A stretch of 64,000 bases of DNA from Candidatus Omnitrophota bacterium (GTDB taxonomy: Bacteria > Omnitrophota > Gorgyraeia > Zapsychrales > Fredricksoniimonadaceae): positions 4,266 through 68,265 of the forward strand of contig CAJARJ010000012.1 in the NCBI GenBank assembly GCA_903944345.1. The letters are read 5' to 3'. The position numbers and the translations under genes were made by a program. Under the pieces are notes generated by a model. That model was not told the DNA's origin. It saw nothing but the letters and a program-made list of their open reading frames with translations, and did no database searches. Below, in pieces: positions 1,211 to 61,954 of this stretch (position 1 is its first letter; each line of letters begins with the position of its first letter).

Positions 1211-2581
1211 TTACAAGTAACTGTAGCCTACCTGTGAATCATCCTGCTTCTTGTCCAGGAGGGCGTTGACAATCCTGTCGTATAGTTCCAGCGCACCGCG
1301 GTATCCGTAATGAAGTATTCTTTGCGCCCCGATCCGGTCATGAACAGGAAATCCCACCCTGATCAAAGGCACATCAAGCTGCCGGGCGATATGATATCCC
1401 TTGCTGTTCCCTATCAGGATATCCGGACGCAGGCGTTTTGCTGATTCGGCGATACCGGCAAAGTCCTCATCATCAGCCGTTTCAATCCTGCCTTGCAGTT
1501 CAGGAATACGTTCCGCCAACAGCCGACGCAGATGACCGCTTTTCCCGCCCGAGGCACACAGAACAGGGATAATGCCAATTTCAGACAAAAAAGTCGCCAG
1601 CCCCAGAACCAGGTCTTCTTCACCGTAGACAAAAGCTTTCTTCTCGAATACATACTTGTGTCCGTCAACCATCGCATCTGTCAACCTGCCGCGTTCATAC
1701 AGATATTTTTCGGTAAGGGACGTACCGGAGATTTTTTCCAGCACACGCATAAATTCGTCTGTTTCACGGATTCCGACCGGCATTCCCAATGGGTGATGCG
1801 CCACCGCAGATCCATAACGCAGGAATTCTCCGGCTGTTTGCTCCTGGGCAACACAGGCTATCCGACCCAAAGTCAACGAGGCAGCAGACGAGCTCATGGA
1901 AGCAATCTCTTTAACAGAAGTACCTCCTGCGGGCAAAGCCCGGTATTCAGGCCACCCCGGGCCGTCCATGGTCTGGGAGTAATCGGGAAGAAAAACAGCG
2001 GAAAGACCAAAATCAGCAACAATCTCCTTTAAATACCGCAGGTCCGCGGGAGAACAAATACCAGGGAATATATTGATTTGATTCGGTCTTTCCGGAACAT
2101 TCTTTCTATCCGCCAGCCGCCTGACCACTGCGCGCGTTGCTGCCCAGAAACCTTCTGCATGAGATCCCGCATAGCTCGGTGTTGAAACATGCACCAGAAC
2201 AGGCGCACCGTTCAGAGAGTCTTCAGGAATGTTGCGCAGAATTCCAGCCATATCTTCACCGATTGTTTCCGAAAGACAAGTGGTCGCAATACCAATAACA
2301 TCGGGATGATACTGGGTTGCAATATTGGCAAGAGCTGCGGCAAGATTTTTCTCGCCGCCAAAGATAGCAGTCTCTTCGCTGAAGTTGGAAGAAGCGATAT
2401 CAACCGGTTCGCGAAAATGGCTTATAAGATATCGCCGGATGTAAGTCGAACAGCCCTGAGAACCATGTAAAAGAGGAACCGCGCCCTCAATACCTTTAAA
2501 CACAAGAGCGGCTCCCAGCGGAGCGCATAATTTGCACGGATTACGGGTAGAGACAAAATTTTTTCTCAGTGCGCCTTGCAT
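1211..2581 (-). CDS. nifN: Nitrogenase cofactor biosynthesis protein NifN
   Basis: 456 aa, with a NifK/NifN-family signature CAPLGAALVFKGIEGAVPLLHGSQGCSTYIRR. It sits between nifE and nifB, and its stop lies 14 nt from the nifB start. Confidence 0.9.
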   Translation of the reverse strand: MQGALRKNFVSTRNPCKLCAPLGAALVFKGIEGAVPLLHGSQGCSTYIRRYLISHFREPVDIASSNFSEETAIFGGEKNLAAALANIATQYHPDVIGIATTCLSETIGEDMAGILRNIPEDSLNGAPVLVHVSTPSYAGSHAEGFWAATRAVVRRLADRKNVPERPNQINIFPGICSPADLRYLKEIVADFGLSAVFLPDYSQTMDGPGWPEYRALPAGGTSVKEIASMSSSAASLTLGRIACVAQEQTAGEFLRYGSAVAHHPLGMPVGIRETDEFMRVLEKISGTSLTEKYLYERGRLTDAMVDGHKYVFEKKAFVYGEEDLVLGLATFLSEIGIIPVLCASGGKSGHLRRLLAERIPELQGRIETADDEDFAGIAESAKRLRPDILIGNSKGYHIARQLDVPLIRVGFPVHDRIGAQRILHYGYRGALELYDRIVNALLDKKQDDSQVGYSYL

Positions 2582-3960
2582 ACAACAGTCTCCCTGAAAG
2601 GAATATAGTCACCACCGCGACGAGATGAAAATCGCCAGACCGGACTCATCACCGATGAATAGACTTCCCGGGCAAAGTTTCTCATACCGACAAAACCGGC
2701 TAATGCTTCCTTGCGCTCATGATTGTGATCACAGAAGCCAACACCTACCTTGTAGGCAATGGGACGTTCCTTGACTCCGCCAATAAGCAGATCGACATCT
2801 TTTTCCTTAATAAATTTCGACAATTCCAGTGGATTGGCATCGTCAATGATCACAGTTCCCGGATCACATAGATCCTGCAGCTGAGCATAGTCTTTCGGAT
2901 TTCCGGTTTGCGAACCGGCCAGAACAGTTTTCATCCCCAGGAGTCTGAGCGCGCGAACCAGCGACACCGCCTTGAATGCTCCTCCGACATAAATTGCGGC
3001 TTTTTTCCCGTTCAAAGCCGTACGGTAAGCTCTGAGTTCCGGCATCAAAGCGGCCACTTCAGTTTGAACAATAACTTTAGCTTTTTCTAGAATTTGAGGA
3101 TACGCCGGGAAGAACTCTGCAACCTGGTAAAGGGCATCGGCCATATCTTCAATCCCAAAATAGGAAACCTTGATATAAGGTATTGAGTAGGTTTGTTTCA
3201 TGTGTTCTGCCAGCTTCGTCATTGATCCTGAGCACTGCACGACATTCAGCTTCGCACCATGCGCCTTGCGGATATCATCTACCCTGCCGTCGCCAGTGAT
3301 AGTAGAAACAACCTCGATGCCCATCTTCTGGTAGTATTCCTTGATCATCCAGATTTCGCCGGCCAGATTGAAATCTCCCAGAATATTGATCGAACAAGGC
3401 CCGACTCCCTGGGTTGATCCGGTTCCTGTCAGACGCGCAAGCGCATCACAGGCTGCCTGATAGCCGTCTTTCTTTGTGCCTCTGAACCCTTCTGAATGCA
3501 CCGGAAGAACAGTTATCCCTTTTTCCAGAGTGACTCTTTTACAAACCGCTTCAACATCATCACCAATCAGCCCGACAATACAGGTGGCATAAACAAAAGC
3601 TGCCTTGGGCTGATAGGTATCGATAAGCTCCACCAGAGCTGAATATAATTTGTCAGCACCGCCAAAAACAACGTCCCGTTCCTGCAGATCAGTCGAAAAA
3701 CTCATCCGATGCAACTGTCCGCCAGAGGATAAAGAACCTCGAATATCCCAGGTATAGGCCGCACACCCCACAGGGCCATGAACAAGATGGAGTGCATCGG
3801 CAATAGGATAAAGCACCACCCTTGAGCCACAAAAGACGCAAGCCCGCTGACTTACCGATCCGGCCAGGCTTTTTTTCTCGCAGAGAATCTTGAGTTCTTC
3901 TCCTGCGCTGACTTGACCAATCTGGCGCTCACGCTCTTTTAAAATACGCATTTCTGCCAT
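2566..3960 (-). CDS. nifE: Nitrogenase cofactor biosynthesis protein NifE
   Basis: 464 aa, with a NifD/NifE-family signature CVFCGSRVVLYPIADALHLVHGPVGCAAYTWDIRG. It overlaps the nifN start by 16 nt. Confidence 0.9.
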   Translation of the reverse strand: MAEMRILKERERQIGQVSAGEELKILCEKKSLAGSVSQRACVFCGSRVVLYPIADALHLVHGPVGCAAYTWDIRGSLSSGGQLHRMSFSTDLQERDVVFGGADKLYSALVELIDTYQPKAAFVYATCIVGLIGDDVEAVCKRVTLEKGITVLPVHSEGFRGTKKDGYQAACDALARLTGTGSTQGVGPCSINILGDFNLAGEIWMIKEYYQKMGIEVVSTITGDGRVDDIRKAHGAKLNVVQCSGSMTKLAEHMKQTYSIPYIKVSYFGIEDMADALYQVAEFFPAYPQILEKAKVIVQTEVAALMPELRAYRTALNGKKAAIYVGGAFKAVSLVRALRLLGMKTVLAGSQTGNPKDYAQLQDLCDPGTVIIDDANPLELSKFIKEKDVDLLIGGVKERPIAYKVGVGFCDHNHERKEALAGFVGMRNFAREVYSSVMSPVWRFSSRRGGDYIPFRETVVCKAH

Positions 3961-3976
3961 ACTTTTGTCTTCTTTC

Positions 3977-5356
3977 CTAGAACGTCAACTCAAACTTTTC
4001 CTCGGGAGCCTTACGATCGCGTTCATCAAGCAGGGCGTTCAGGAGTTTCTCAACCAGTCGTATTGCCCCCATGTAACCAACATTAGGGAAATAGGAATGT
4101 CCAACCCGGTCCATGATAGGAAAACCAAAACGAATCAAAGGTATGTTTTCGTCCCGGGAAATATATTTTCCCCAGGTATTACCAATAAGAAGATCAACCG
4201 GCTCATTCTTGATCCACTGGTGCAAAAGAAACATGTCGGCCTGGGCCCCCTGACGAAATTTAGCCCCGGGCACTCCTTTGAGAACCTCCGCCATCCGCTC
4301 ATCGAAATACTTCCCAGGGGTTCCGGTGACCACATAAACCGGCTGCATCCCGATATCCACCAGAAACTCGCAAAGCGGGACTAACTGATCCGGATCGCCG
4401 TACAACGCCACTCGCTTATTATAAAAATACTGCTCGTTATCAGTCAGAATGTCGACCAGTCGACCGCGCTCCCGTTCAATGCTCTCGGGGACAGCTACAC
4501 CGGCGGCTTCGCTTAAGGTTTTAATAAAACGATCTGTGGCCGCAAGGCCAACAGGAATATCCAATTCGTATAGTTTGACCTTGCACTTGGCGTTCAACAA
4601 TTCGCCGGCGGGGACAGAAGCGTCATGACCAAGAGCCAGAGTGGCCAGACTGTCACCTGTAGCCCGAAGCTCGTCAATAGTTGTTCCTCCGGTTCCATAC
4701 ATATCAAACTGGCCATTTTGCGGACGATCCATAGTCTCGGACGTATCCGGGAACATAATGCTGGCAACTCCCATTTCAACAGCCAGCCTTTTGATCTCCC
4801 GCATATCGGAGGGTTCTACCCAGCCCGGTATAATATTGACCTTGTTGTCCTTTACCCCGGTCGTGAGTGAAAAATATTTCACCATGCTTTTGACCATATT
4901 GGCAAAACCGGTCACATGCGAACCGATATAGCTGGGCGTATTGGCATGAATAATATATTTGTCAGCAGGGATCTTGCCCTCTTCGGCTGCTTTGGCAATG
5001 ATCTGAACAATATCATCCCCTATAGTTTCGGAAAGGCAGGTTGTATGGACTGCTATGACATCCGGTTTATAAAGCGAAAAGATGTTTTCGACCGAAGTCA
5101 GCAGGTTGGCCTGTCCGCCAAAAACCGCCGAACCCTCAGTAAAGGAGCTGGTCGTCGCCATAACCGGTTCTTTAAAATGCCGTGTCAGCATGCTGCGATG
5201 ATACGAACAGCATCCCTGCGAACCATGGCTGTGCGGCAAACAATTATGGATTCCCAACGCCGCATACATCGCCCCGATTGGCTGACAGGTTTTGGCAGGA
5301 TTAATAGTAAGCGCTTCGCGCTCTTTGATATCTTTTGGTGTATGTCGAAGCAACAT
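3977..5356 (-). CDS. nifK: Nitrogenase MoFe protein beta subunit NifK
   Basis: Signature CQPIGAMYAALGIHNCLPHSHGSQGCCSYHRSM. The start is set to the ATG at 5356 (MLLRHTPKD...), which is preceded by AGGAGG and lies 9 nt after the nifD stop, rather than the upstream ATG at 5416 that would overlap nifD by 52 nt. Confidence 0.9.
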   Translation of the reverse strand: MLLRHTPKDIKEREALTINPAKTCQPIGAMYAALGIHNCLPHSHGSQGCCSYHRSMLTRHFKEPVMATTSSFTEGSAVFGGQANLLTSVENIFSLYKPDVIAVHTTCLSETIGDDIVQIIAKAAEEGKIPADKYIIHANTPSYIGSHVTGFANMVKSMVKYFSLTTGVKDNKVNIIPGWVEPSDMREIKRLAVEMGVASIMFPDTSETMDRPQNGQFDMYGTGGTTIDELRATGDSLATLALGHDASVPAGELLNAKCKVKLYELDIPVGLAATDRFIKTLSEAAGVAVPESIERERGRLVDILTDNEQYFYNKRVALYGDPDQLVPLCEFLVDIGMQPVYVVTGTPGKYFDERMAEVLKGVPGAKFRQGAQADMFLLHQWIKNEPVDLLIGNTWGKYISRDENIPLIRFGFPIMDRVGHSYFPNVGYMGAIRLVEKLLNALLDERDRKAPEEKFELTF

Positions 5357-5364
5357 ATGCCCTC

Positions 5365-6999
5365 CTAATTCGTCTCGTTGATAAAGACTGCTGCCAAAGG
5401 TTCCTGTTTGTGCCACGGAGCACGGATATGCTTCCAGACGCGAGTATTTAACATCCGCTCGACATCGCGATAGAAATTGATTGCGCCTTCAAAGGAGGCA
5501 TAGGGTCCGCCATAATCATAGTTATGCAGTTGCTTTAACGGCATCCCCATTTTCTGAATGACGTATTTCTCCTTTATTCCGGCACAAAATATATCCGGTT
5601 TGTATTTTTCGATGATCAGCTCGGTCTCAAAGTGATTAATATCATCAATGACCAGCGTACCGGCATCCATCTCGGGCATCATGCCTTTATAATCCCTGAA
5701 CTCGAAGCCCTTGGCGGCCATGGCATCCAACTGCTCTTTTGTTTTCCGGGCACGAAACTCGCTGGGGTGAGGTTCGACATGCAATTCTTCAATATTGCGG
5801 CTGTCCGCATCGACCTTGATATCCGGAATGACGACTCGTCCCTCATAATCGTCACGATGCGCAAATTCATAACCGGCAGCGAGCACTTTCATGCCCATTT
5901 CCTTGAATAGTTCCTGATAATGATGTGCCCGTGACCCACCCACAAAAAGCATGGCTGTTTTGCCTTCCACTCTTGGTCTGATAACGGCCAGCTCTGCTTT
6001 GACCTTTTCCATCTCTTCGGCAATAACACGTTCAACTTTCTTTTTGAGCTCGGCATCTTCGAAGTAATCGGCTATCTTGCGCAGTGACTTGGCGCTAGCC
6101 TCTGCACCAATGAAGTTCACCTTGAACCAGGGCACCCCGTATTTCTTTTCGATCATATCGGCAACATAATTAATGGAACGGTGGCACATAACAACAACAA
6201 GATCAGCCAGATGTGCAGAGGCAAACTGCTCGTAAGTGGAGTTACCACTAAAAGTTGCTACCAAAGTAATACCGCATTTGGTAAACAGTTCTTCCAATGC
6301 AAAAGCATCGCCGCCGATGTTATATTCACCCAGCATCGCAACCTTGAACTTGCCTTTGGGACAGGTAGTCCCTTTCCCAACCACATGTTTAAAAAGCTGA
6401 TTATTGGCAATATGATGGCCTGCGGACTGACTTACTCCTTTGTACCCCTCGCAACTAAAACCAAAGACATTGGCCCCTGTTTTCTCGCTCATCTCTCTGG
6501 AAACGGCATGAACATCATCTCCGATCAGTCCGATAGGACAGGTGGAAAAAACGCCAACAGCCTTGGGATGGAAAATATCAACAGCCTCTTCGATTGCTTT
6601 TTTGAGTTTCTTCTCACCGCCAAAGATGATGTTTTCATCCTGCATATCAGTTGAAAGACAATAGGTCATGAAATTGTCATCAGTTTCACTCTCGGGACGG
6701 GTCTGGTTTCGTCTGGTCAGCCAGGAATAGAAACCGCAGCCGATCGGTCCATGCGTAATATTAAGAATATTACGCGTCGGGCCGAGCACCACGCCCTTGC
6801 AGCCGGCATAAGAGCATCCGCGCTGGGTGATAATGCCGGGCAAAGTGCGCACATTGGCCTGGATTTCCTGCCTGGGCTCCTGCTCGGGTTCATTAACGAC
6901 AAACTGCTTTTGTCTTTTGCGCGCCGTCTTTGTGGGATAAGCGCTCAGCATTTCGTCTTTTACCGACTGTGCTGACTTGATATCGTTTTGTGCCGACAT
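5365..6999 (-). CDS. nifD: Nitrogenase MoFe protein alpha subunit NifD (long, anaerobe-type)
   Basis: 544 aa, with signature IITQRGCSYAGCKGVVLGPTRNILNITHGPIGCGFYSW and DENIIFGGEKKL. Confidence 0.92.
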   Translation of the reverse strand: MSAQNDIKSAQSVKDEMLSAYPTKTARKRQKQFVVNEPEQEPRQEIQANVRTLPGIITQRGCSYAGCKGVVLGPTRNILNITHGPIGCGFYSWLTRRNQTRPESETDDNFMTYCLSTDMQDENIIFGGEKKLKKAIEEAVDIFHPKAVGVFSTCPIGLIGDDVHAVSREMSEKTGANVFGFSCEGYKGVSQSAGHHIANNQLFKHVVGKGTTCPKGKFKVAMLGEYNIGGDAFALEELFTKCGITLVATFSGNSTYEQFASAHLADLVVVMCHRSINYVADMIEKKYGVPWFKVNFIGAEASAKSLRKIADYFEDAELKKKVERVIAEEMEKVKAELAVIRPRVEGKTAMLFVGGSRAHHYQELFKEMGMKVLAAGYEFAHRDDYEGRVVIPDIKVDADSRNIEELHVEPHPSEFRARKTKEQLDAMAAKGFEFRDYKGMMPEMDAGTLVIDDINHFETELIIEKYKPDIFCAGIKEKYVIQKMGMPLKQLHNYDYGGPYASFEGAINFYRDVERMLNTRVWKHIRAPWHKQEPLAAVFINETN

Positions 7000-7051
7000 A
7001 GGTCACTCCTTCAGATCGTTTGATTCTCTGTTTACCCCGCAGCCCCAGGCC

Positions 7052-7435
7052 TTATTCATCCAGCACCTTGTCACCCGATTCGCCTGTTCGGACTCTGTAT
7101 GACTCCAGAATGGGAAGAACAAAAATCTTGCCGTCACCGGGTTTCCCGGTCTGATTAGCCTTGATGATGACGTCCACCGTCTTCTTGACCAGACTGTCCG
7201 GGACAACAACAGTTATAAGACGCTTGGGGATCAATCGCGGCCCGTTGGCATTCAGCTGGGAAATGGCTTCTTCCCGTCCCTCCTGTGCTCCGCTAAGAAT
7301 TCTGAAATCGACATTTCCTTTGCCGCGGCCTAAAACGCGGCCGGTCGCAGTCATCGAAGTGATCCCTGCCGCTTCCAGCGCCTTCTTGGTTTCATTCATC
7401 TTGTTAATACGAATGATCGCCATTATGTCTTTCAT
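7052..7435 (-). CDS. nifI2: PII-family nitrogenase regulatory protein NifI2 (GlnB-like)
   Basis: 127 aa PII fold (MKDIMAIIRINKMNETKKALEAAGITSMTATGRVLGRGKG...GDGKIFVLPI). It is the second of two PII genes between nifH and nifD. Confidence 0.85.
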   Translation of the reverse strand: MKDIMAIIRINKMNETKKALEAAGITSMTATGRVLGRGKGNVDFRILSGAQEGREEAISQLNANGPRLIPKRLITVVVPDSLVKKTVDVIIKANQTGKPGDGKIFVLPILESYRVRTGESGDKVLDE

Positions 7436-7447
7436 GTTTAGTCTCCG

Positions 7448-7786
7448 TTATTCATCTTTCTTGCCGGTACTGACGGTATAAACCTCTTCAACCGGAGAAA
7501 CGAATACTTTGCCATCACCGAAATTTCCCTTGGCTCCGGTCCGGGCCGCCTCCATGATGCGCTGGACAACAAATTCCTTGTCTGCCGCCGGAATAACTGT
7601 CATCAGAAGTTCTTTGGGCAGTTCGTCATAATGAATATCGCCAACCTTTAAACCTCTTTGTTTGCCGCGACCAAAAACTGAAACTTTGGTGACTGCCGGA
7701 TAACCTGCATCCAGCAAAGTTGCAAGCACCGCATCCGCCTTCTCGGGTCTTACAATAGAACGAACGAGTATATGTCCCATGACCAT
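7448..7786 (-). CDS. nifI1: PII-family nitrogenase regulatory protein NifI1 (GlnB-like)
   Basis: 112 aa PII fold (ILVRSIVRPEKADAVLATLLDAGYPAVTKVSVFGRGKQRG...GDGKVFVSPV), immediately downstream of nifH. Confidence 0.85.
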   Translation of the reverse strand: MVMGHILVRSIVRPEKADAVLATLLDAGYPAVTKVSVFGRGKQRGLKVGDIHYDELPKELLMTVIPAADKEFVVQRIMEAARTGAKGNFGDGKVFVSPVEEVYTVSTGKKDE

Positions 7787-7797
7787 CCCTCCTGTAT

Positions 7798-8739
<942 letters not shown>

Positions 8740-26304: not shown

Positions 26305-27984
26305 TCACTGCCTCCGGAAACTTTGATTGAATCTGTTACAGGCGTGGCAATAGGCATTATTATTGCCCAGCTGAGTCCGGCCGGTTTCGTCACCGGCCAG
26401 TAACATCGGAACACCCTGAGATAAAATAAGTGTTGCCAGAAGATTGCGTTTTTGTTTTTCCCGTAAAGCTTTAATGGCAGGATCAGCTGTCGGGCCTTCC
26501 ACACCGCAATTCCAGCTTAAATTATCGTTTGTCCCGTCAATATTGTTATCACCATTGGCTTCATTATGTTTATGATTATAACTCACCTGATCATTAAGCG
26601 TGAAACCGTCATGGCATGTCACAAAATTAATGCTGGCTGACGGCCGACGACCGCTTGATTCATACAGATCACTGCTTCCGCTTAAACGGGTGGCAAACTC
26701 GCCCAAAGTACCTCCGTCATTCTTCCAGAAACGCCGGACTGCGTCTCGATACAAGCCATTCCACTCGGTCCAACCGACAGGAAAATTCCCAACCTGATAG
26801 CCGCCATGGCCCAAATCCCATGGTTCAGCAATCAGTTTGACCTGGGAGAGGACAGGATCCTGACAAATAACATCAAAGAAAGCACTTAACTTGTTAACTT
26901 CATACAGCTCGCGCGCCAGGGCACTGGCCAGATCAAAACGAAAACCGTCAACATGCATCTCCAGAACCCAATATCTAAGGCTGTCCATGATAAGTTGAAG
27001 AACACGCGGGTGCTGTAAGTTAAGGGTATTCCCACATCCGGTAAAATCTTCATAATAGCGGCGATTATTTCTGACCAGCCTGTAATAAGCCGCGTTATCC
27101 ACACCCCGGAAGGACAGTGTTGGCCCGAAATGATTACCCTCAGCCGTATGATTGTAAACTACATCCAGAATGACTTCAATCCCCACCAGATGAAATGAGC
27201 GGACCATCCGTTTAAACTCGTCAATGGCCCCCTGCTCAGTCCGGGAAGCCGCATAGCGCAGATCAGGAGCAAAGAAAGAAAGGGTGTTATACCCCCAGTA
27301 ATTACTTAGGCCTTTTGCCAGAAGATGACGATCATCAACAAAATGGTGCACAGGCATAAGCTCCAGCGTAGTTACACCCAGATCTTTTAGATAATGAATA
27401 ACGGCATCAGAAGATAATCCTTCATAGGTTCCCCTGAGATTCGGCGGCACCCGGGGATGTAATTTGGTAAACCCTTTCACATGCAGTTCATAAATCAGGG
27501 TACGGTGCCAGGCAACCCTGGGTGGACGATCATTTCCCCAGTCAAAATGCGGGTCAACAACCGCCGCAAGCGGAACATACGCCGCATTATCCCGCTCATC
27601 GTAAGAAAGGTCCCCCCGCGGATCTCCGATGCGATAAGCAAACAGTTCATCCTGCCATTCGAGCCTGCGGCCAATAGCCCTGGCGTAAGGATCAAGGACA
27701 ATTTTATTAGGATTAAAACGATGCCCAAGTTCCGGTTGATACGGGCCATGCACCCTGTAGCCGTAAAGAAATCCTGGCCAAGCTCCAGGCAGATAACAAT
27801 GCCAGACCTGATCGGTATGCTCCCGCATCTGAATACGGAGAACCTCTTTCGTTTTGTCTGCCGAATCAAAAAGACAAAGCTCAACCTTGGTAGCATTCTC
27901 GGAAAAAAGGGCAAAATTGACCCCTTGCTCATCGCGCGTTGCCCCTAAAGGATATGGACGTCCCGGTCAGATATTTATAGCCAT
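26305..27984 (-). pseudogene. glgX: Glycogen debranching enzyme GlgX/TreX homolog with an in-frame TGA at codon 6 and no C-terminal domain
   Basis: From the ATG at 27984 the translation reads [42 protein letters not shown]..., which then joins the track ORF ([15 protein letters not shown]... from 27828). The protein stops 13 aa after GNNNAYC, so about 100 aa of the isoamylase C-terminal domain are absent. Confidence 0.55.
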
Positions 27985-28381
27985 AAATTATTCTTTCAGT
28001 TCTTTTGTATAAAAAGCGTTTGAGTAGGATAAGCAAATTCTATCCCGCGCTTTCCGAATTCTTCCCTGATCGCAAGATTGATCTCTTGCTGGATATCCAT
28101 ATAAATATTGTAATCAGGACCCAGCACATAATAAACGATTTCAAAAACCAGACTGAAATCACCATAACTGGAAAAATGCGCGCGGTCAAAAACGCAGCCA
28201 TTTTTCCTGATAATGCTTTCCAGAACTCCCGGAATTTACTTGAATCTTTCAAGTTGCTCGCCGCCGGGCTGCGTAAGCGAGTTGCTTTAATGCCGATATA
28301 CTTGACCGTACCTATAATGAATAGCCGAGAAAGACAACGATACTGCGAGCTACCAGAAAAGCGATCGCTGCCAGCTGAACA

Positions 28382-28426
28382 GAACCCAAAAAGGCCGCCT
28401 CCGGTTAAAAAAACCAGATGGCGGCC
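28382..28426 (-). terminator. Rho-independent terminator after the ptsN-like gene
   Basis: Minus strand GGCCGCC-(20-nt loop with inner CCGGTT/AACCAG pairing)-GGCGGCC followed by TTTTTGGGTTC. Confidence 0.65.
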
Positions 28427-28480
28427 CGACCATCAATGCTCCCTCTGAAGGAAAAATTCTTCAGACCCCGTTTATCCGTT

Positions 28481-48836: not shown

Positions 48837-49175
48837 TTATTTAATGCTCAGAAAATTGTTCAGATTATCATCTCCAGCCAGAACGATTGCGATATCCCCC
48901 GCCGTCGTTATTTCCCGCACGGTATCTACCTCGCCCCTTAACGTCACAATCTCCCTTTCAACAGTAACATCAATGTTGTCCAGCACCCCAGACAAGGACG
49001 TTTCCCGACCTAAAGCATCTTGAATATCTATAGCCAGGTCATTATCGATTCCCGTTGTATTCATCCTTGATCCGTCTTTAAGGTCTGCCAGAATTTTTGC
49101 ATTCTGCGAATCTTCATTTAACTTTTCATTTCTCTCCAACGATAACCCTGTCAAAACTGCCTGGGAATTTAACAT
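48837..49175 (-). CDS. BON-domain (OsmY-like) protein
   Basis: 112 aa BON domain pattern (LADLKDGSRMNTTGIDNDLAIDI...GEVDTVRE), preceded by the RBS AAGGAGAA. Confidence 0.65.
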   Translation of the reverse strand: MLNSQAVLTGLSLERNEKLNEDSQNAKILADLKDGSRMNTTGIDNDLAIDIQDALGRETSLSGVLDNIDVTVEREIVTLRGEVDTVREITTAGDIAIVLAGDDNLNNFLSIK

Positions 49176-49226
49176 TGTATTCTCCTTGATAAAGTTGAAT
49201 AAAACCGGGACTCCCGCCTCTTAAGA

Positions 49227-49264
49227 CTATTCTAGGACGCAGCCGGAATGTATCAATTGTACCG
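49227..49264 (-). promoter_or_regulatory. Conserved promoter motif copy A (TTGATA-N16-TAGAAT with a conserved spacer), upstream of the BON gene
   Basis: Minus strand CGGTACAATTGATACATTCCGGCTGCGTCCTAGAATAG, identical at 32 of 38 positions to the motif at 53292-53329. Confidence 0.55.
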
Positions 49265-49299
49265 GGGTTTAACAAATGAAACCTGGACGCACCACCCCC

Positions 49300-49962
49300 T
49301 CAGGGCTGTTGAATCCTGCCATCCTTCAAAAGAATCTGTCGCCGGGCAAGTCTGGCAAAATCCGGCTCATGCGTCACTAACACAACCGTAGTCTTGTTCT
49401 TTAGATTGACATCGATAAATATTTTCATAACTATATCGCCATTGACACTGTCCAGGCTACCGGTCGGTTCATCGGCAAAAAGGTATTGCGGTTCCATCAC
49501 AAGCGCCCGGGCGATGGCTACCCGTTGCTGTTCCCCGCCCGAAAGCTGACGCGGCAAGCGGGCCATCTTCTCTTTGAGTCCGAACTGCTCCAACAACGAC
49601 TCCGCGGCAGGCCGCCGTTTTTCCTTCTGATGAAGTTTTACTGTAGGCATAAGTACATTCTCGAGCGCGGTTAACTCTGCGATCAGATAATGAAACTGAA
49701 AAACAAACCCCATATGCCGGTTACGAAAAAGGTGAAGATCGTCGGAATTCAATTTCTGCAAATCTTTCCCGGATATTTCAATCTTTCCTTCACTGGGTGT
49801 ATCCAGACTGCTTAAAAGGTACAAGAGCGTGCTTTTCCCCGATCCGGAGCGTCCGGTCAATGCAACAAATTCACCGTCCTGTATCTCCAAAGAAATATCG
49901 CTCAGAACCCGGCTTGGCGGAACACCTATCTCTTTCCCGGCATGTTGAACCACAATACTCAT
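49300..49962 (-). CDS. ABC transporter ATP-binding protein (LolD/MacB-ATPase type)
   Basis: 220 aa with Walker A GRSGSGKST, signature LSGGEQQR and Walker B LFADEPT. Confidence 0.85.
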   Translation of the reverse strand: MSIVVQHAGKEIGVPPSRVLSDISLEIQDGEFVALTGRSGSGKSTLLYLLSSLDTPSEGKIEISGKDLQKLNSDDLHLFRNRHMGFVFQFHYLIAELTALENVLMPTVKLHQKEKRRPAAESLLEQFGLKEKMARLPRQLSGGEQQRVAIARALVMEPQYLFADEPTGSLDSVNGDIVMKIFIDVNLKNKTTVVLVTHEPDFARLARRQILLKDGRIQQP

Positions 49963-51213
49963 CTAAGCTCCTGAGCGAATAATCTGAATAGGAGTAAATC
50001 TGCTGGCAGCGAGGGCCGGCAGGATGCTTGCAAAAGACGATGAAAAAAGCGACAAGAACAATGCCTGGACATAAATCCCGGGAGAGAGTGAAATTTGCAG
50101 GTGTGCCTGGGGATCATACGAACTACCGCCTGAGAAAGGAATAGTTTGCAAATACAGGCATAGAAAATACCCGCATACCAGCCCCAGCAGGCCACCACAA
50201 ATGCCAATAATAATCCCCTGTGAGAAAAACAGTACAACCACATCATATGTGTCATACCCCATTGAGCGCAAAATCGCAATGTCCTGCCTTTTCTGCGTAA
50301 CTGTCATGTTTAGAATATTGTAAATACCAAAACCCGCTACAATTATGACCGTCATTGTCATGGTCCAGCGCAGAATAGTTTGCAATCTGATAACCGAAAG
50401 AATGCTGGCATTCTGCTGGTCCCAACTTTCAGTGCGTTCCGGCGCAATTCTGGACCAGTTGGTGGCTATGGCGGCCGCCTGAGTGTAATCGCTCAGGCGC
50501 ACCCCGATCTCATTAACCTGATTGGGAGTCCCGTTCAGCTTCTGAACGTCATTTAAAGCCCCGTAAGCCTGCGTATCGCTCCCCCGATTTCCTGTCCGAA
50601 ATCGGCCCACAACTTTGAAAGGCACAGGCAAGCCGGTTTTAACCGCCACCAAGAGGGTCTGATCAATGCCGGCTCCAAGGCGTTTCATCAATTCATCTCC
50701 CAGAATAATCCGGTTCCCTCCCGCTCCAATATCGGAAAACTCGCCTTCAATCATGTAATTGGCAATACTTGTCACCTTGCCTTGCTGTTTCGGGTCACAA
50801 CCGACCAGATTGGCTGAAACAGAAACTTTAGCCAAGGTGAATAAAGCCGGAGCTGTCAATAACGGAGCAAAAGCCTCAACCCGCGGATCCGCCTTCAGTC
50901 GTTCATACCAGCTTTGAGGATTCTGAATCCCCAAATAACCGTGTACTCCTGATGGCGGAGATCTCCAGAAGACGTATCGGAACTCCTGGTTGTAAAATGC
51001 TTCGTCAAGTTGATGCTCAGTCAGATAATCTTGCCGGGCCTCGATATGTATCTGTGCCGAATTATTAACAAGCTGCTGAATCATGAATGTCTGAAAACCC
51101 GTAAAAAAACCGGTGACCGCGACATAAGCCAGAGCACCTAAAAAGACACCCAGCAACGTAAAGATCGTCTGCTTTCTGCGTTCCAGAAGATAGCGGATAG
51201 CCAGATAAATCAT
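49963..51213 (-). CDS. FtsX-family ABC transporter permease (LolCE/MacB-type, one periplasmic domain)
   Basis: 416 aa with four TM helices and a large periplasmic loop between TM1 and TM2, the FtsX/MacB-type permease architecture. Confidence 0.8.
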   Translation of the reverse strand: MIYLAIRYLLERRKQTIFTLLGVFLGALAYVAVTGFFTGFQTFMIQQLVNNSAQIHIEARQDYLTEHQLDEAFYNQEFRYVFWRSPPSGVHGYLGIQNPQSWYERLKADPRVEAFAPLLTAPALFTLAKVSVSANLVGCDPKQQGKVTSIANYMIEGEFSDIGAGGNRIILGDELMKRLGAGIDQTLLVAVKTGLPVPFKVVGRFRTGNRGSDTQAYGALNDVQKLNGTPNQVNEIGVRLSDYTQAAAIATNWSRIAPERTESWDQQNASILSVIRLQTILRWTMTMTVIIVAGFGIYNILNMTVTQKRQDIAILRSMGYDTYDVVVLFFSQGIIIGICGGLLGLVCGYFLCLYLQTIPFSGGSSYDPQAHLQISLSPGIYVQALFLSLFSSSFASILPALAASRFTPIQIIRSGA

Positions 51214-52022
51214 TTGTTAAGGTCTTTCCGCACAAGAACACGATCACCAACCCGAAGATCCCCGGAGACAATTTCACTCATAGCCTTGTCGATGATCCCT
51301 GTCTTGACTTCTGCTCGTCTGGGAATTTCATTCCCACGCTTTCGCCAAACATATTGTCCCTGCTCCAGCGCGGCAACCGGCACAAGCAGCACATCCGGAT
51401 GCGTTGCTATTTCGATAGCCACATCCCCGGTCATATCCGGTAATATTCTTAATGGCAAATCCGGAACGCTGATGCGAGCCAGAAAATTACTGTCATTGGG
51501 ATACACCGATTCGACAAGGCCGTTGTAACTCTGACTGCGAATCGTATCGAAACTGACCTTTACCTGCTGCCCTGCCTTGACCTGTAACGCTCCCTGTTGC
51601 TCCAGAGACACCATCAGATATCGTTCCCGCAAATCCACCAGAGAAAGGGCTGAACTCTGCGGATACACATTCTCGCCGACCTTATAAGGAAGAAATGTCA
51701 CGGTTCCGTCAAAGGGAGCCGAAAAAACATTCTCATCAAGATTTATCAGCGGATCACCTTTTTTTACGGCATCACCTTCTTTTACATACAAGGCCATAAC
51801 TGTGCAAATCAGCCCCGGGCGCAGCTGATAACTGTTGCGGGCGGTAACCGTGCCAATACCGTAAACCGACTCGACAATCGTTCCCTTTTGCAAAGGTTCG
51901 GACAAATCACCCGCTGATCGTGCCTTAACAATATTGAGCAGCCAAAACCCCGCCAACAGGAGCACCGCAAATAGCACACTCCAGAAACGATGCGTACTGA
52001 TCCAGATTAAAATAGCTCGCAA
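51210..52022 (-). CDS. Efflux transporter periplasmic adaptor (short HlyD/MacA-like membrane fusion protein)
   Basis: 270 aa with an N-terminal TM anchor, biotin-lipoyl-like and beta-barrel segments (YVKEGDAVKKGDPLINLD...), directly upstream of the FtsX permease and ATPase. Confidence 0.7.
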   Translation of the reverse strand: MRAILIWISTHRFWSVLFAVLLLAGFWLLNIVKARSAGDLSEPLQKGTIVESVYGIGTVTARNSYQLRPGLICTVMALYVKEGDAVKKGDPLINLDENVFSAPFDGTVTFLPYKVGENVYPQSSALSLVDLRERYLMVSLEQQGALQVKAGQQVKVSFDTIRSQSYNGLVESVYPNDSNFLARISVPDLPLRILPDMTGDVAIEIATHPDVLLVPVAALEQGQYVWRKRGNEIPRRAEVKTGIIDKAMSEIVSGDLRVGDRVLVRKDLNK

Positions 52023-52064
52023 TATTCCCGCCTCAAATTGACGTTATCCAGTCCGGCATACAAT

Positions 52065-52265
52065 TTAACAGCTGCATAAATACTTCCGGCCACCGTTATT
52101 GACCATATGCACATGTCCTTCTCTGACCAGCCAGCCGATGCCCATATCTGTCAGACCTTCCGCATTGTTCAAATGTGATCGCACCTCTTCAAGACTGACC
52201 GGACGTTTCTTTTGATCGATAAGATTCAGAATATCCCCGGAAGCAATACCAATTTGTGTCATCAT
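52065..52265 (-). CDS. Small hypothetical protein (possible winged-helix fold)
   Basis: 66 aa with no strong family signature. Weak confidence. Confidence 0.35.
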   Translation of the reverse strand: MMTQIGIASGDILNLIDQKKRPVSLEEVRSHLNNAEGLTDMGIGWLVREGHVHMVNNGGRKYLCSC

Positions 52266-52408
52266 CTTTCTCTCCGTTTCTTTATACCCTTATTAGTTGT
52301 CGTAGCAAAGAATCAGCACCATCCGGATCGGTCGACACCAGATGCATTAGTAATTCTAAAGCAGGAAAAAAAGAAGACAATTAGACCGGGGTATAACTGA
52401 GAAAACAC

Positions 52409-53197
52409 TTATCTACAACCACCGCGTGAATTCTTTTCCGGGGTTGCCGATGGTTTGCCATACCAATACGCCTGACGCTCATAATGTTTATGCAGTTGTT
52501 CCTCATAATCACGGGTAGGCAAAGACTCCGCCGTGTATTCCGGAGATTTCTTGATAGTCTCGACTGAAAGACTTATATAAACTTTCGACTCATCCCAACT
52601 CACGCGCTCGATCCATTGTGGCGCCACCAGAACTTTTTTCCCGTGCCACCAATTCTTTGTATCAACGACCAGATAACGAATTGCCCAGGACGCTTCATCA
52701 ATAATAAAATCATCGATATGGCCGATCTCTCCATCCATGGCCTGAATGTGATACCCGCTTACGCTTTGCGTGCTACGCAAATGCGGATCCCACCCTTTCC
52801 CGGTTTGCACAGACTTCTTCCATTGCGTCTGATCACGCACAATACCGGGATACCCGCCCCACATAAATGGACCTTCCCAGTACACAGGATATCCATAATA
52901 TTTATGATAAACATCCTCGAACTGTCGTGAAACAGGCTTGTCGCTATCGAGCGAGGGACTATCCTCAATCTGCTTTCTGCTAAGACCAACAACAATACAC
53001 TGCTCCTCCTCCATCACGGCGCCCAACGCATACGGGGAGATCAAAACCTGCCGGCCTACGAGCCAATTGCCTGTGTCCGCTACCAGATAGCGAATCGTCC
53101 AGTGCTGATCATCGAAATAGAATTCCTTGACCCTGCCAATCTCCTTGCCATCATTGTTTAATTTGAAACCGTTTAGTGTTTTGGCTTTATAGAGCAT
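52409..53197 (-). CDS. Tandem PRC-barrel domain protein
   Basis: 262 aa with two repeats of the PRC-barrel pattern (WTIRYLVADTGNWLVGRQVLISP and WAIRYLVVDTKNWWHGKKVLVAP). Confidence 0.7.
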   Translation of the reverse strand: MLYKAKTLNGFKLNNDGKEIGRVKEFYFDDQHWTIRYLVADTGNWLVGRQVLISPYALGAVMEEEQCIVVGLSRKQIEDSPSLDSDKPVSRQFEDVYHKYYGYPVYWEGPFMWGGYPGIVRDQTQWKKSVQTGKGWDPHLRSTQSVSGYHIQAMDGEIGHIDDFIIDEASWAIRYLVVDTKNWWHGKKVLVAPQWIERVSWDESKVYISLSVETIKKSPEYTAESLPTRDYEEQLHKHYERQAYWYGKPSATPEKNSRGGCR

Positions 53198-53291
53198 TCC
53201 GAACCTTTCTGTTATCCAATTTCCTCTGTGAGAGAATATACGAGCCGCCCAACAGAGCGGACGGGTTAGATCGAAACTTTCTCTCGTAATT

Positions 53292-53329
53292 CTATTCTAG
53301 GAAGGATCAGGAATGGTTCAATTGTACCG
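53292..53329 (-). promoter_or_regulatory. Conserved promoter motif copy B (TTGAAC-N16-TAGAAT), upstream of the PRC-barrel gene
   Basis: Minus strand CGGTACAATTGAACCATTCCTGATCCTTCCTAGAATAG, paralogous to the motif at 49227-49264. Confidence 0.55.
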
Positions 53330-53410
53330 AAGTATTACTGCGAAGAAACTGAACAAATGCCACTTTCAGAACGGGCTGATCGCCCCGGACAACAGCCAGC
53401 GTAAATCTAT

Positions 53411-58967: not shown

Positions 58968-59031
58968 ATACTATCTCCAATGCCACAAGTAATCGAACAC
59001 TTACTATAAGCATACGGCCCGTAGTTGCATT

Positions 59032-59059
59032 TGTCAAGTATGTACTCGATTACTTGACA
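59032..59059. promoter_or_regulatory. Candidate TetR operator palindromes in the tetR / tolC-RND divergent region
   Basis: TGTCAAGTA-N10-TACTTGACA is a perfect 9-bp inverted repeat. A second inverted pair CAAGTAATCGA (58986-58996) / TCGATTACTTG (59046-59056) lies nearby. Confidence 0.55.
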
Positions 59060-59103
59060 AGCTGATTATTTCAACATAAACTTACTTTCAAGGAGATCCC
59101 ATT

Positions 59104-61821: not shown

Positions 61822-61954
61822 AATTAATTAGTGACACACAGAATTGTTTCTTGACATTCTTTACGACAATTAAACTTGTTGCGGGTCTGGATTTTTTCAT
61901 TGCAATAGAATGTAACAGAATGTGATAGAACAATTCTGTGTGTCACCGATTATT
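61822..61954. mobile_element. 133-bp MITE-like element, copy B, with perfect 18-bp TIRs
   Basis: Same sequence as copy A with 2 mismatches, and perfect TIRs GTGACACACAGAATTGTT / AACAATTCTGTGTGTCAC. It is followed by a tandem 11-bp duplication CCGATTATTCC x2 (61946-61967) that overlaps the stop of the Ank-RES gene. Confidence 0.7.

Follow-up and report, generated by a model that had tools for sequence, protein, structure and literature searches.

Several described systems place stress genes under one shared sequence signal. In the Escherichia coli sigma-S (RpoS) regulon, of which osmY is a classic member, OsmY-like BON, ferritin/Dps-like and superoxide dismutase (SOD) genes are united under one promoter type with sigma-70-like hexamers, and a C just before the -10 hexamer favours RpoS. 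The alphaproteobacterial EcfG/RpoE2 system (PhyR-NepR, single-domain receivers) has in its regulon receivers, small stress proteins of the domain-of-unknown-function (DUF) type and PRC-barrel genes, one of which belongs to the Sinorhizobium meliloti RpoE2 regulon (PMC6180224), while in Nostoc the BON, PRC-barrel and CsbD genes are co-induced (PMC7660261). The Bacillus sigma-B regulon includes CsbD, YsnF, YflT and Dps. In the HrcA/CIRCE, Deinococcus DdrO/RDRM, PerR and LexA systems a short palindrome on near-consensus promoters marks dispersed stress genes lineage-wide, and palindromic sites that abut or overlap the -35 hexamer are found with class-II CRP/FNR and LuxR-type activators, with NarL (7-2-7) and with DosR. 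DosR controls a stress/dormancy regulon. Here we analyse 64,000 nucleotides (nt) of DNA from a Candidatus Omnitrophota bacterium (contig CAJARJ010000012.1; this whole stretch is called the window), in which a 38-nt sequence had been noticed in nearly identical form upstream of a BON-domain gene and a PRC-barrel gene. On comparative evidence we consider it rather probable that this 38-mer forms the central part of a composite promoter-operator through which a lineage-specific stress regulon is controlled.

The composite element in the window and in related genomes

The two copies, read directly from the sequence as CGGTACAATTGATACATTCCGGCTGCGTCCTAGAATAG at 49227-49264(-) and CGGTACAATTGAACCATTCCTGATCCTTCCTAGAATAG at 53292-53329(-), are identical at 32 of 38 positions, as originally predicted. 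Their likeness also lies beyond chance: the degenerate 38-mer matches the window exactly twice, where 100 shuffles that preserve the dinucleotides lead one to expect 0.00 matches. Each copy is intergenic and faces a minus-strand gene, with 51 nt between the end of copy 1 and the BON start codon and 94 nt between the end of copy 2 and the PRC-barrel start codon. A sigma-70 consensus scan called them independently, as TTGATA-16-TAGAAT (copy 1) and TTGAAC-16-TAGAAT (copy 2); the predicted form TTGAyn-N16-TAGAAT is therefore right in its 16-nt spacer and its TAGAAT and inexact in TTGAyn, the -35 of copy 2 being TTGAAC. Ungapped similarity of the two copies, as given by a repeat finder run on the window, covers 56 nt at 77% identity and goes no further, and since the flanks beyond are unrelated, the copies are not a long duplication. 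The BON and PRC proteins recur with identical sequence and in the same gene order on a dozen metagenome contigs (ENA 'BUCK21-1', JGI, NCBI, Logan) that represent one species, and among these independent assemblies the first site is unchanged in 9 contigs and the second in 10.

Within the 38-mer alone the only palindromy is CAATTG, and a meaningful dyad emerged only after sites of other genomes had been aligned. The alignment holds 13 sites, namely window sites 1 and 2 together with those of loci L134, L136, L138, L140, L141 and L199, and is gap-free up to the spacer. Its consensus, TnTTATACC-NN-GGTACAA / TTGATT / CATTT(CATTy) ... CC / TAnAAT-N4-TTA, totals about 55 bp. The 38 nt of the original prediction proved too short: the element runs 9-11 nt further upstream and on to the downstream TTA. 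Across the 13 sites, most positions of TTATACC..GGTACAATTGATTCATT carry 1.4-2.0 bits of information, and T1, A2, A5 and T6 of the -10 carry 2.0 bits each. The segment TTATACC-NN-GGTACAA is an imperfect 16-bp palindrome of 7-2-7 layout that abuts the -35; its register to the -35 shows zero variation, the -35/-10 spacer is 16 or 17 nt long, and CATTy is conserved directly 3' of the -35. When all possible centres were scanned without reference to the consensus, over the full set of 15 sites described below, symmetry was strongest about a centre lying between the palindrome's two N: 71% of the pairs in the 7-bp arms are complementary, versus 25% by chance. In L134 the palindrome is perfect (TTGTACC-CA-GGTACAA). 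Dyad symmetry is conserved across the sites, as in operators of dimeric regulators generally.

A position weight matrix (PWM), made of the 30-nt upstream block and the CC/-10 block, was built from the 13 sites, which themselves score 43-57; shuffles of the window reached at most 11.9. Outside the training set it scored a site in the window that the promoter scan had also called, so that the two predicted strong copies are joined by a third, weaker one at 52353-52396(-). A search of the window with the palindrome alone returned exactly these three sites and one probable chance match. Site 3 has one mismatch to TTATACCNNGGTATAA and lies 13 nt past the PRC stop codon and 87 nt ahead of the DUF2582 start codon. 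The sites and the genes that follow them are listed here, with protein lengths in amino acids (aa) and UTR standing for untranslated region.

49222..49274(-): site 1, complete element before the BON gene; PWM score 54.2 versus the shuffle maximum of 11.9
49272-49257(-): site 1 palindrome TTAAACC-CC-GGTACAA
49256-49251(-): site 1 -35 TTGATA, followed by a 16-nt spacer beginning CATTCC
49234-49229(-): site 1 -10 TAGAAT
49222(-): site 1 predicted start A; predicted 5' UTR about 47 nt
48837-49175(-): BON-domain (OsmY-like) protein after site 1, 112 aa; Pfam PF04972, E=3.7e-9
53287..53339(-): site 2, complete element before the PRC-barrel gene; PWM score 43.1
53337-53322(-): site 2 palindrome TAATACT-TC-GGTACAA
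53321-53316(-): site 2 -35 TTGAAC, followed by a 16-nt spacer
53299-53294(-): site 2 -10 TAGAAT
53287(-): site 2 predicted start A; predicted 5' UTR about 90 nt
52409-53197(-): PRC-barrel protein (YrrD/YsnF-like) after site 2, 262 aa; Pfam PF05239, E=1.2e-13, two matched stretches
52346..52398(-): site 3, weaker copy before the DUF2582 operon; PWM score 22.6
52396-52381(-): site 3 palindrome TTATACC-CC-GGTCTAA
52380-52375(-): site 3 -35 TTGTCT, followed by a T-rich 16-nt spacer
52358-52353(-): site 3 -10 TAGAAT; predicted start near 52347
49300..52265(-): operon after site 3, genes at most 42 nt apart or overlapping, with Pfam matches
52065-52265(-): DUF2582 winged-helix protein, heading the operon (Pfam)
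51210-52022(-): HlyD-type adaptor (Pfam)
49963-51213(-): MacB-type permease (Pfam)
49300-49962(-): ABC ATPase (Pfam)

Read in this way, the region from 48.8 to 53.3 kb is a putative three-promoter island that would serve PRC-barrel, DUF2582-HlyD-MacB-ABC and BON units. The JGI name of the BON protein is 'osmotically-inducible protein OsmY', and YsnF and YrrD are among the JGI names of the PRC-barrel homologues. The latter number thousands at about 70% identity and are labelled Thermodesulfovibrionales, Dissulfurispiraceae, Deltaproteobacteria and others, an unusually high conservation across phyla for a protein of unknown function, which made them unusable for picking close relatives. Site 2 has two overlapping -10 TAGAAT hexamers, the second 5 nt downstream (TAGAATAGAAT, 53289-53299(-)), giving alternative spacers of 16 and 21 nt. 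The T run in the spacer of site 3 (52359-52374) is T7 (16 nt) in the window and six contigs and T8 (17 nt) in four contigs (L003, L009, L011 and L012, from three other assemblies). The difference may reflect variation among strains that adjusts how strong the promoter is, or an error in assembling the homopolymer.

The relatives used for comparison were reached mainly through the BON protein, which has only 13 homologues, at 56-72% identity, among 5.8 billion clusters. Their contigs (L136, L137, L138/L139, L140, L141/L142, L199 and L200) were scanned with the -35-side block GGTACAATTGATTCATT. The outcome was bimodal, good matches having 0-3 mismatches versus 4-5 in the background, and every good match was accompanied by TAnnnT 16-17 nt after TTGnnn; the match at L141 652, with 4 mismatches and a correctly placed -10, was also accepted. 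The total is 15 sites: the window has three, and about seven genomes of uncultured relatives supply the other 12. All are intergenic and face the downstream gene. The 12 sites and what follows them are given below (ORF, open reading frame; TPP, thiamine pyrophosphate).

L136 459: receiver, BON and START genes
L136 7567: 70-aa ORF and methyltransferase
L138 4901: receiver and small ORFs, one DUF2934-like
L138 6444: DUF5670, hydrolase, ferritin, TPP enzyme and BON
L138 13012: DUF748
L138 14139: contig end
L140 7189: BON
L141 1299: receiver and BON
L141 652: receiver
L199 828: BON; the ABC-to-BON order is as in the window, with the element between them
L137 9651: BON; PWM score 30.6, outside the training set
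L134 (14-kb metagenome contig): cluster of a cysteine-rich 115-aa protein, ferritin-like, Fe/Mn SOD, rubrerythrin-like, CDGSH and rubredoxin-like genes

The element therefore stands upstream of BON homologues, directly or at the operon head, in six contigs besides the window. The original prediction would have lost its point had the similarity been a local duplication at two places; instead the same architecture is found at the 12 sites in about seven related genomes and at the third window site. L134 was found by the DNA pattern alone, independently of BON: a metagenome scan with TACAATTGANNCATTCCNNNNNNNTCCT gave 5 loci, of which only L134 is real, and its sequence is the same as that of L126, a Candidatus Omnitrophica metagenome-assembled genome whose intergenic AGGTACAATTGATTCATTCCTGATCTCTCCTTAAGAT was the only relevant one among the matches listed from a scan of a genome collection with the 5' motif half GGTACAATTGANNCATTCC. 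The matches to GGTACAATTGANNCATTCC in Bacteroidota, at least 118 loci, lie mostly in conserved cysteine-rich coding sequence and were set aside as coincidence. The 19-mer GGTACAATTGAYRCATTCC (e.g. L063 2883 and L099; L013-L130) lies within a conserved stretch of more than 100 Bacteroidota genomes among the matches listed, a stretch that looks protein-coding because it varies mainly at every third base.

A -35 TTGnnn and a -10 TAnnnT 16-17 nt apart occur on the coding strand at all 15 sites and on the opposite strand at none, and a C directly precedes the -10 at 9 of them. In the 13 aligned sites the conserved TTA puts an A at the 7th nt after the -10, which is the predicted start; measured from there, the palindrome spans about -51 to -36, with its centre near -43 (about 42-44 bp upstream). 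In the two receiver-BON operons (L136 and L141) the annotated ATG begins exactly at this 7th nt, an alternative ATG lying 39 nt further on. This coincidence fits a real start site in those two operons, whose transcripts would be leaderless if the annotated ATG is used.

Besides these two receivers (L136 500 and L141 1341), lexA of L136 (9298-9345(-)) has its ATG exactly 6 nt past a -10 hexamer, in TTGACA-N18-TATTAT-TGCTTC-ATG, and mRNAs lacking a leader may be a frequent feature of this lineage. Upstream of the same lexA there are two direct repeats, CCATACATAYG.ATAG. The BON genes of relatives lie beside clusters of small stress-type genes (DUF2934, DUF3309, CsbD, YflT/ActD-like, DUF5670 and DUF6496), examples being L138 4981-6415 and L141 2222-2764, and up to three single-domain receiver genes stand in a row near them.

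Several controls bear on specificity. PWM hits of at least 20 number 15 in 153 kb of Omnitrophota DNA, 13 of these being training sites that match by construction, compared with one, the maximum of 21.1, in 1.36 Mb of unrelated control loci, each preselected for already holding 16-19 nt of the motif. Where GTACAATTGATTCATT occurs by chance in viral contigs, TAnnnT stands at the right distance in only 3 of 56 cases, so the link between motif and -10 is specific to this lineage. In the window, matches to the consensus are bimodal, with nothing between 16/23 and 23/23 positions. The element was not found in the other window intergenic regions of at least 60 nt, including those before nifH, znuA, htpG, mdoG, the MscS gene and the resistance-nodulation-division (RND) operon, nor in the pyk intergenic region. 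It was likewise absent from about 25 kb of Omnitrophota DNA anchored on htpG (HSP20, M48 protease, hemerythrin and a sigma/anti-sigma pair of the extracytoplasmic function, ECF, type). The close homologues of the window HtpG that are named (66-77% identity) all belong to Candidatus Omnitrophica/Omnitrophota, which places the window in this phylum. Elsewhere in the lineage, promoter-like sequences such as those between TetR and RND genes and at lexA of L136 are plain TTGACA-N17/18-TATnnT.

A probable stress regulon and the rival explanations

The families downstream of the element are largely of stress type: BON, PRC-barrel, ferritin/Dps-like, Fe/Mn SOD, rubrerythrin, DUF2934-like and single-domain receivers. 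The same element thus precedes several unlinked, functionally related units and, in other genomes, homologous BON genes, as the cis-element of a regulon does. This recurrence before stress-type genes supports the original proposal of a small stress regulon under a shared dedicated regulator or an alternative sigma factor. The narrower label of an envelope or osmotic regulon agrees with the targets in that they are of stress type, and needs widening, since the gene content indicates general and oxidative stress and not a purely envelope or osmotic one.

The element would act as a promoter. Its hexamers resemble the apparently ordinary promoters of the same genome, and the holoenzyme that reads it therefore probably contains the housekeeping sigma or a closely related group-2 sigma. 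We favour a transcription factor over a sigma factor as the source of specificity because the 7-2-7 palindrome abuts the -35 and the hexamers look ordinary. The weaker sites point the same way: L137 and window site 3 retain the palindrome and the -10 while the -35 drifts (TTGTGT and TTGTCT). A dimeric regulator acting at the palindrome is the most plausible source of specificity. Such a DNA-binding regulator would occupy the palindrome and contact or occlude RNA polymerase at the -35. In the source genome it would co-ordinate the PRC-barrel gene, the DUF2582/MacAB-like efflux operon and the BON gene, and in relatives it would control the receiver-BON operons, the ferritin/Dps-containing clusters and the SOD/rubrerythrin cluster. 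Given a core promoter near consensus, we lean towards a repressor that would block the -35 and alpha-subunit contacts and be released under stress, although the geometry is equally compatible with activation from a class-II position. We give even odds to the possibility that Omnitrophota have a general-stress or dormancy-like regulon not described before, of which the element is the cis-signature and whose regulator may belong to a type with no earlier link to stress control.

A number of observations weigh against this interpretation or narrow it. Conservation extends over the -35 and the next 5 nt, which a simple 16-bp operator does not account for, and a second, weaker dyad, AATTGA-T-TCATTT, is centred on the -35 with 58% complementary pairs over the 15 sites; this dyad could mean a larger or different protein footprint, and together with CATTy it suggests one of more than 16 bp. 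The left arms of sites 1 and 2 are the least symmetric, with 6/7 and 5/7 matches to the consensus arm, and site 3 (22.6) scores barely above the best preselected control. Most loci were fetched via BON homologues, which inflates the BON share of the targets; this bias does not touch the oxidative-stress cluster of L134, the PRC gene, the efflux operon, DUF748, DUF5670 or the receiver genes. The genomes were seen in part (153 kb in total), with ribosomal and other highly expressed promoters outside the sample, and the support is comparative throughout. No regulator gene could be tied to the element in the loci sampled. Candidates weighed for this role were the DUF2582 winged-helix protein and the FixJ-like gene at L141 268-624, which appears truncated within its helix-turn-helix; as neither recurs near sites in other loci, both count as leads only.

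Among the alternatives the one to be taken most seriously, if still unlikely in our estimate, is that the whole block is the recognition sequence of an alternative sigma factor (group-2 RpoS-like or group-3) with an extended -35 (GGTACAATTGATTCATT) and an extended -10 (CCTAnAAT), and with no separate transcription factor. Both hexamers are conserved together with their immediate flanks, their 16-17 nt spacing is typical of the sigma-70 family, the C before the -10 is present at the 9 sites mentioned, the gene set parallels the sigma-S, sigma-B and EcfG regulons, and the targets include single-domain receiver genes, whose products act in partner-switching stress pathways elsewhere. Yet no sigma is known whose contacts run without a gap over about 27 bp (-51 to -25), and dyad symmetry in the upstream part is the signature of a dimeric regulator and not of sigma region 4. 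The hexamers, moreover, resemble the plain TTGACA/TATnnT promoter-like sequences elsewhere in the genome, at the weaker sites it is the -35 that drifts while palindrome and -10 stay, and no stress sigma gene was seen in the sampled DNA, where only an ECF pair (L202) occurs, in a motif-free locus. That hexamers are near the sigma-70 consensus would also suit the strongest form of an ordinary housekeeping promoter, with an UP-element-like extension, serving highly expressed genes without any tie to stress. Ribosomal and rRNA promoters, which lie outside the sampled DNA, leave room for this explanation, which we nevertheless hold to be improbable: only 3 sites occur among about 20 intergenic regions of at least 60 nt in the 64-kb window and none in the 25 kb around htpG in relatives, the window scores are bimodal, the extension is a GC-containing palindrome and not an A-tract UP element, and the targets are mostly stress-type genes.

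Two further explanations carry still less weight. The palindrome could be a LexA-type (SOS) operator, its core (A/G)TAC-N4-GTAC sharing the 4-4-4 layout of the cyanobacterial LexA box AGTACWNWTGTACT and resembling published cyanobacterial boxes (PMC3091678); cyanobacterial LexA is reported to control non-SOS genes, and a lexA gene (L136 8696-9298(-)) lies beside the element-bearing 70-aa/methyltransferase unit. However, none of the 15 sites fits RGTACNNNDGTWCB or the Cheo box (GAAC-N4-GTTC), no DNA-repair gene lies downstream of any site, and the lexA of L136 has its own TTGACA-N18-TATTAT promoter without the palindrome, whereas LexA normally autoregulates, which makes a LexA operator very improbable. 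Hardly credible, finally, is the view that local duplication or a small mobile repeat produced the similarity and that it means nothing for regulation. Only 4 kb indeed separates sites 1 and 2, and they have spacer bases in common (CATTCC.G.T.C.TCC) whose conservation does not reach all other genomes, but their similarity ends after 56 nt amid unrelated flanks and genes, the element precedes BON homologues of 56-72% protein identity as well as unrelated genes in other genomes, its orientation and distance to the -10 are fixed, and L134 and L140 have the same spacer start, CATTCCTG.

Comparison with described promoters and operators

We compared the 15 sites with known promoter and operator types. 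None has the EcfG promoter GGAAC-N16-17-(C)GTT on either strand, and unlike in the EcfG system the hexamers here are sigma-70-like. None has the sigma-B promoter GTTTAA-N12-15-GGGWAW, although the gene content is akin to that regulon, with CsbD, DUF2934 and DUF3309 beside BON in one relative (a DUF2934-DUF3309-CsbD-BON cluster on contig z7URCm30), a YflT-like gene after BON in L141, and YsnF/YrrD-named PRC homologues. The sigma-54 promoter TGGCAC-N5-TTGCW (GG/GC 10 nt apart) is likewise absent from all 15, GG and TTG being only 7 nt apart here, as are the RpoH promoter CTTGAA-N13-17-CCCCAT, the sigma-28 promoter TAAA-N15-GCCGATAA and the HrcA/CIRCE operator TTAGCACTC-N9-GAGTGCTAA; the heat-shock loci (HSP20-htpG) are in turn without the element. 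An ECF-like reading of the opposite strand (GGAAT-N17-GTT) was discarded: no gene lies there for it to drive, and none of the 15 sites has GGAAC-N15-18-GTT. No Rfam family was found at the window sites in a scan at the gathering score, whose sole match in the window is nhaA-I (28416-28468).

RpoS promoters also have sigma-70-like hexamers, and the C that RpoS favours before the -10 (at -13) stands at 9 of the 15 sites; they differ in having a poorly conserved -35 and no fixed palindrome, whereas here 27 bp upstream of the spacer are conserved in fixed register. RpoS is not known outside Proteobacteria. With the CRP/FNR, LuxR-type, NarL and DosR sites as a group the element shares the 7-2-7 layout of inverted heptamers, a centre about 42-44 bp upstream of the predicted start and the strict register with the -35, but its half-site TTATACC fits neither TGTGA, TTGAT or TACYYMT nor the Dos box, and promoters activated from a class-II site usually have a weak -35, while TTG is invariant here. 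The repressor-operated architecture of a palindrome on a sigma-70 promoter seems to us the most probable one. From its known representatives the element differs in sequence, which is unrelated (CIRCE, Cheo and the cyanobacterial LexA box were compared and not found), and in position, the palindrome lying upstream of and abutting the -35 and not over the -10 or the start.

Significance and other features of the window

Omnitrophota are widespread and almost entirely uncultured, and we know of no work on gene regulation in them; a full-text search of the published literature returned nothing on this motif, nor on regulons or promoters of Omnitrophota. Regulon promoter-operators are a familiar kind of element; new here are the sequence, the lineage and the postulated regulator. 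Should our interpretation be true, a regulon could for the first time be recognised by its sequence alone in this uncultured phylum, and DUF5670, DUF748, the cysteine-rich 115-aa protein and ORFs of 59 to 122 aa would be assigned to stress protection. BON and PRC-barrel genes (with ferritin and SOD in relatives), which are under different sigma factors in Proteobacteria, Firmicutes and Cyanobacteria, would here answer to a different signal again, which adds to the cases of convergence among general-stress regulons without being a new kind of mechanism. The value of the element lies in an entry point into the gene regulation of an uncultured phylum: it offers a PWM-based listing of the stress regulon in any Omnitrophota genome, a handle on the regulator, whose presence or absence can be matched to that of the motif, and a functional label for several small-protein families.

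The window also encodes nifHDKEN, znuABC, ferritin, rubrerythrin, htpG, mdoGH, amylase-family genes, pyruvate kinase and an RND pump. Further features are listed below.

1211-8730(-): full nitrogenase-type set, a NifH-family gene and four Oxidored_nitro genes ordered like nifD, K, E and N
26305-27828: amylase-family ORF whose extreme N-terminus matches only the C-terminal half of the CBM48 model
27830-28410: short broken ORFs, including a 43-aa fragment
28416-28468(-): nhaA-I RNA (Rfam RF03057), 45.1 bits versus a gathering score of 37
58986-59060: divergent intergenic region of TetR and OEP-RND genes, with a perfect 10-bp inverted repeat TTGTCAAGTA...TACTTGACAA inside 20-nt arms
61825-61952: 36-nt inverted repeats, 83% complementary and 56 nt apart

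The nitrogenase-type set is either a true nitrogenase or a nif-like paralogue group. The nhaA-I RNA is followed only by the short broken ORFs, and the nhaA-I/amylase region looks decayed or frameshifted. The inverted repeat between the TetR and RND genes overlaps a TTGACA-N17-TATGCT promoter and is probably a TetR operator, and the 36-nt inverted repeats fill the intergenic region upstream of a Fic-domain gene, adjoining an ankyrin-repeat gene.

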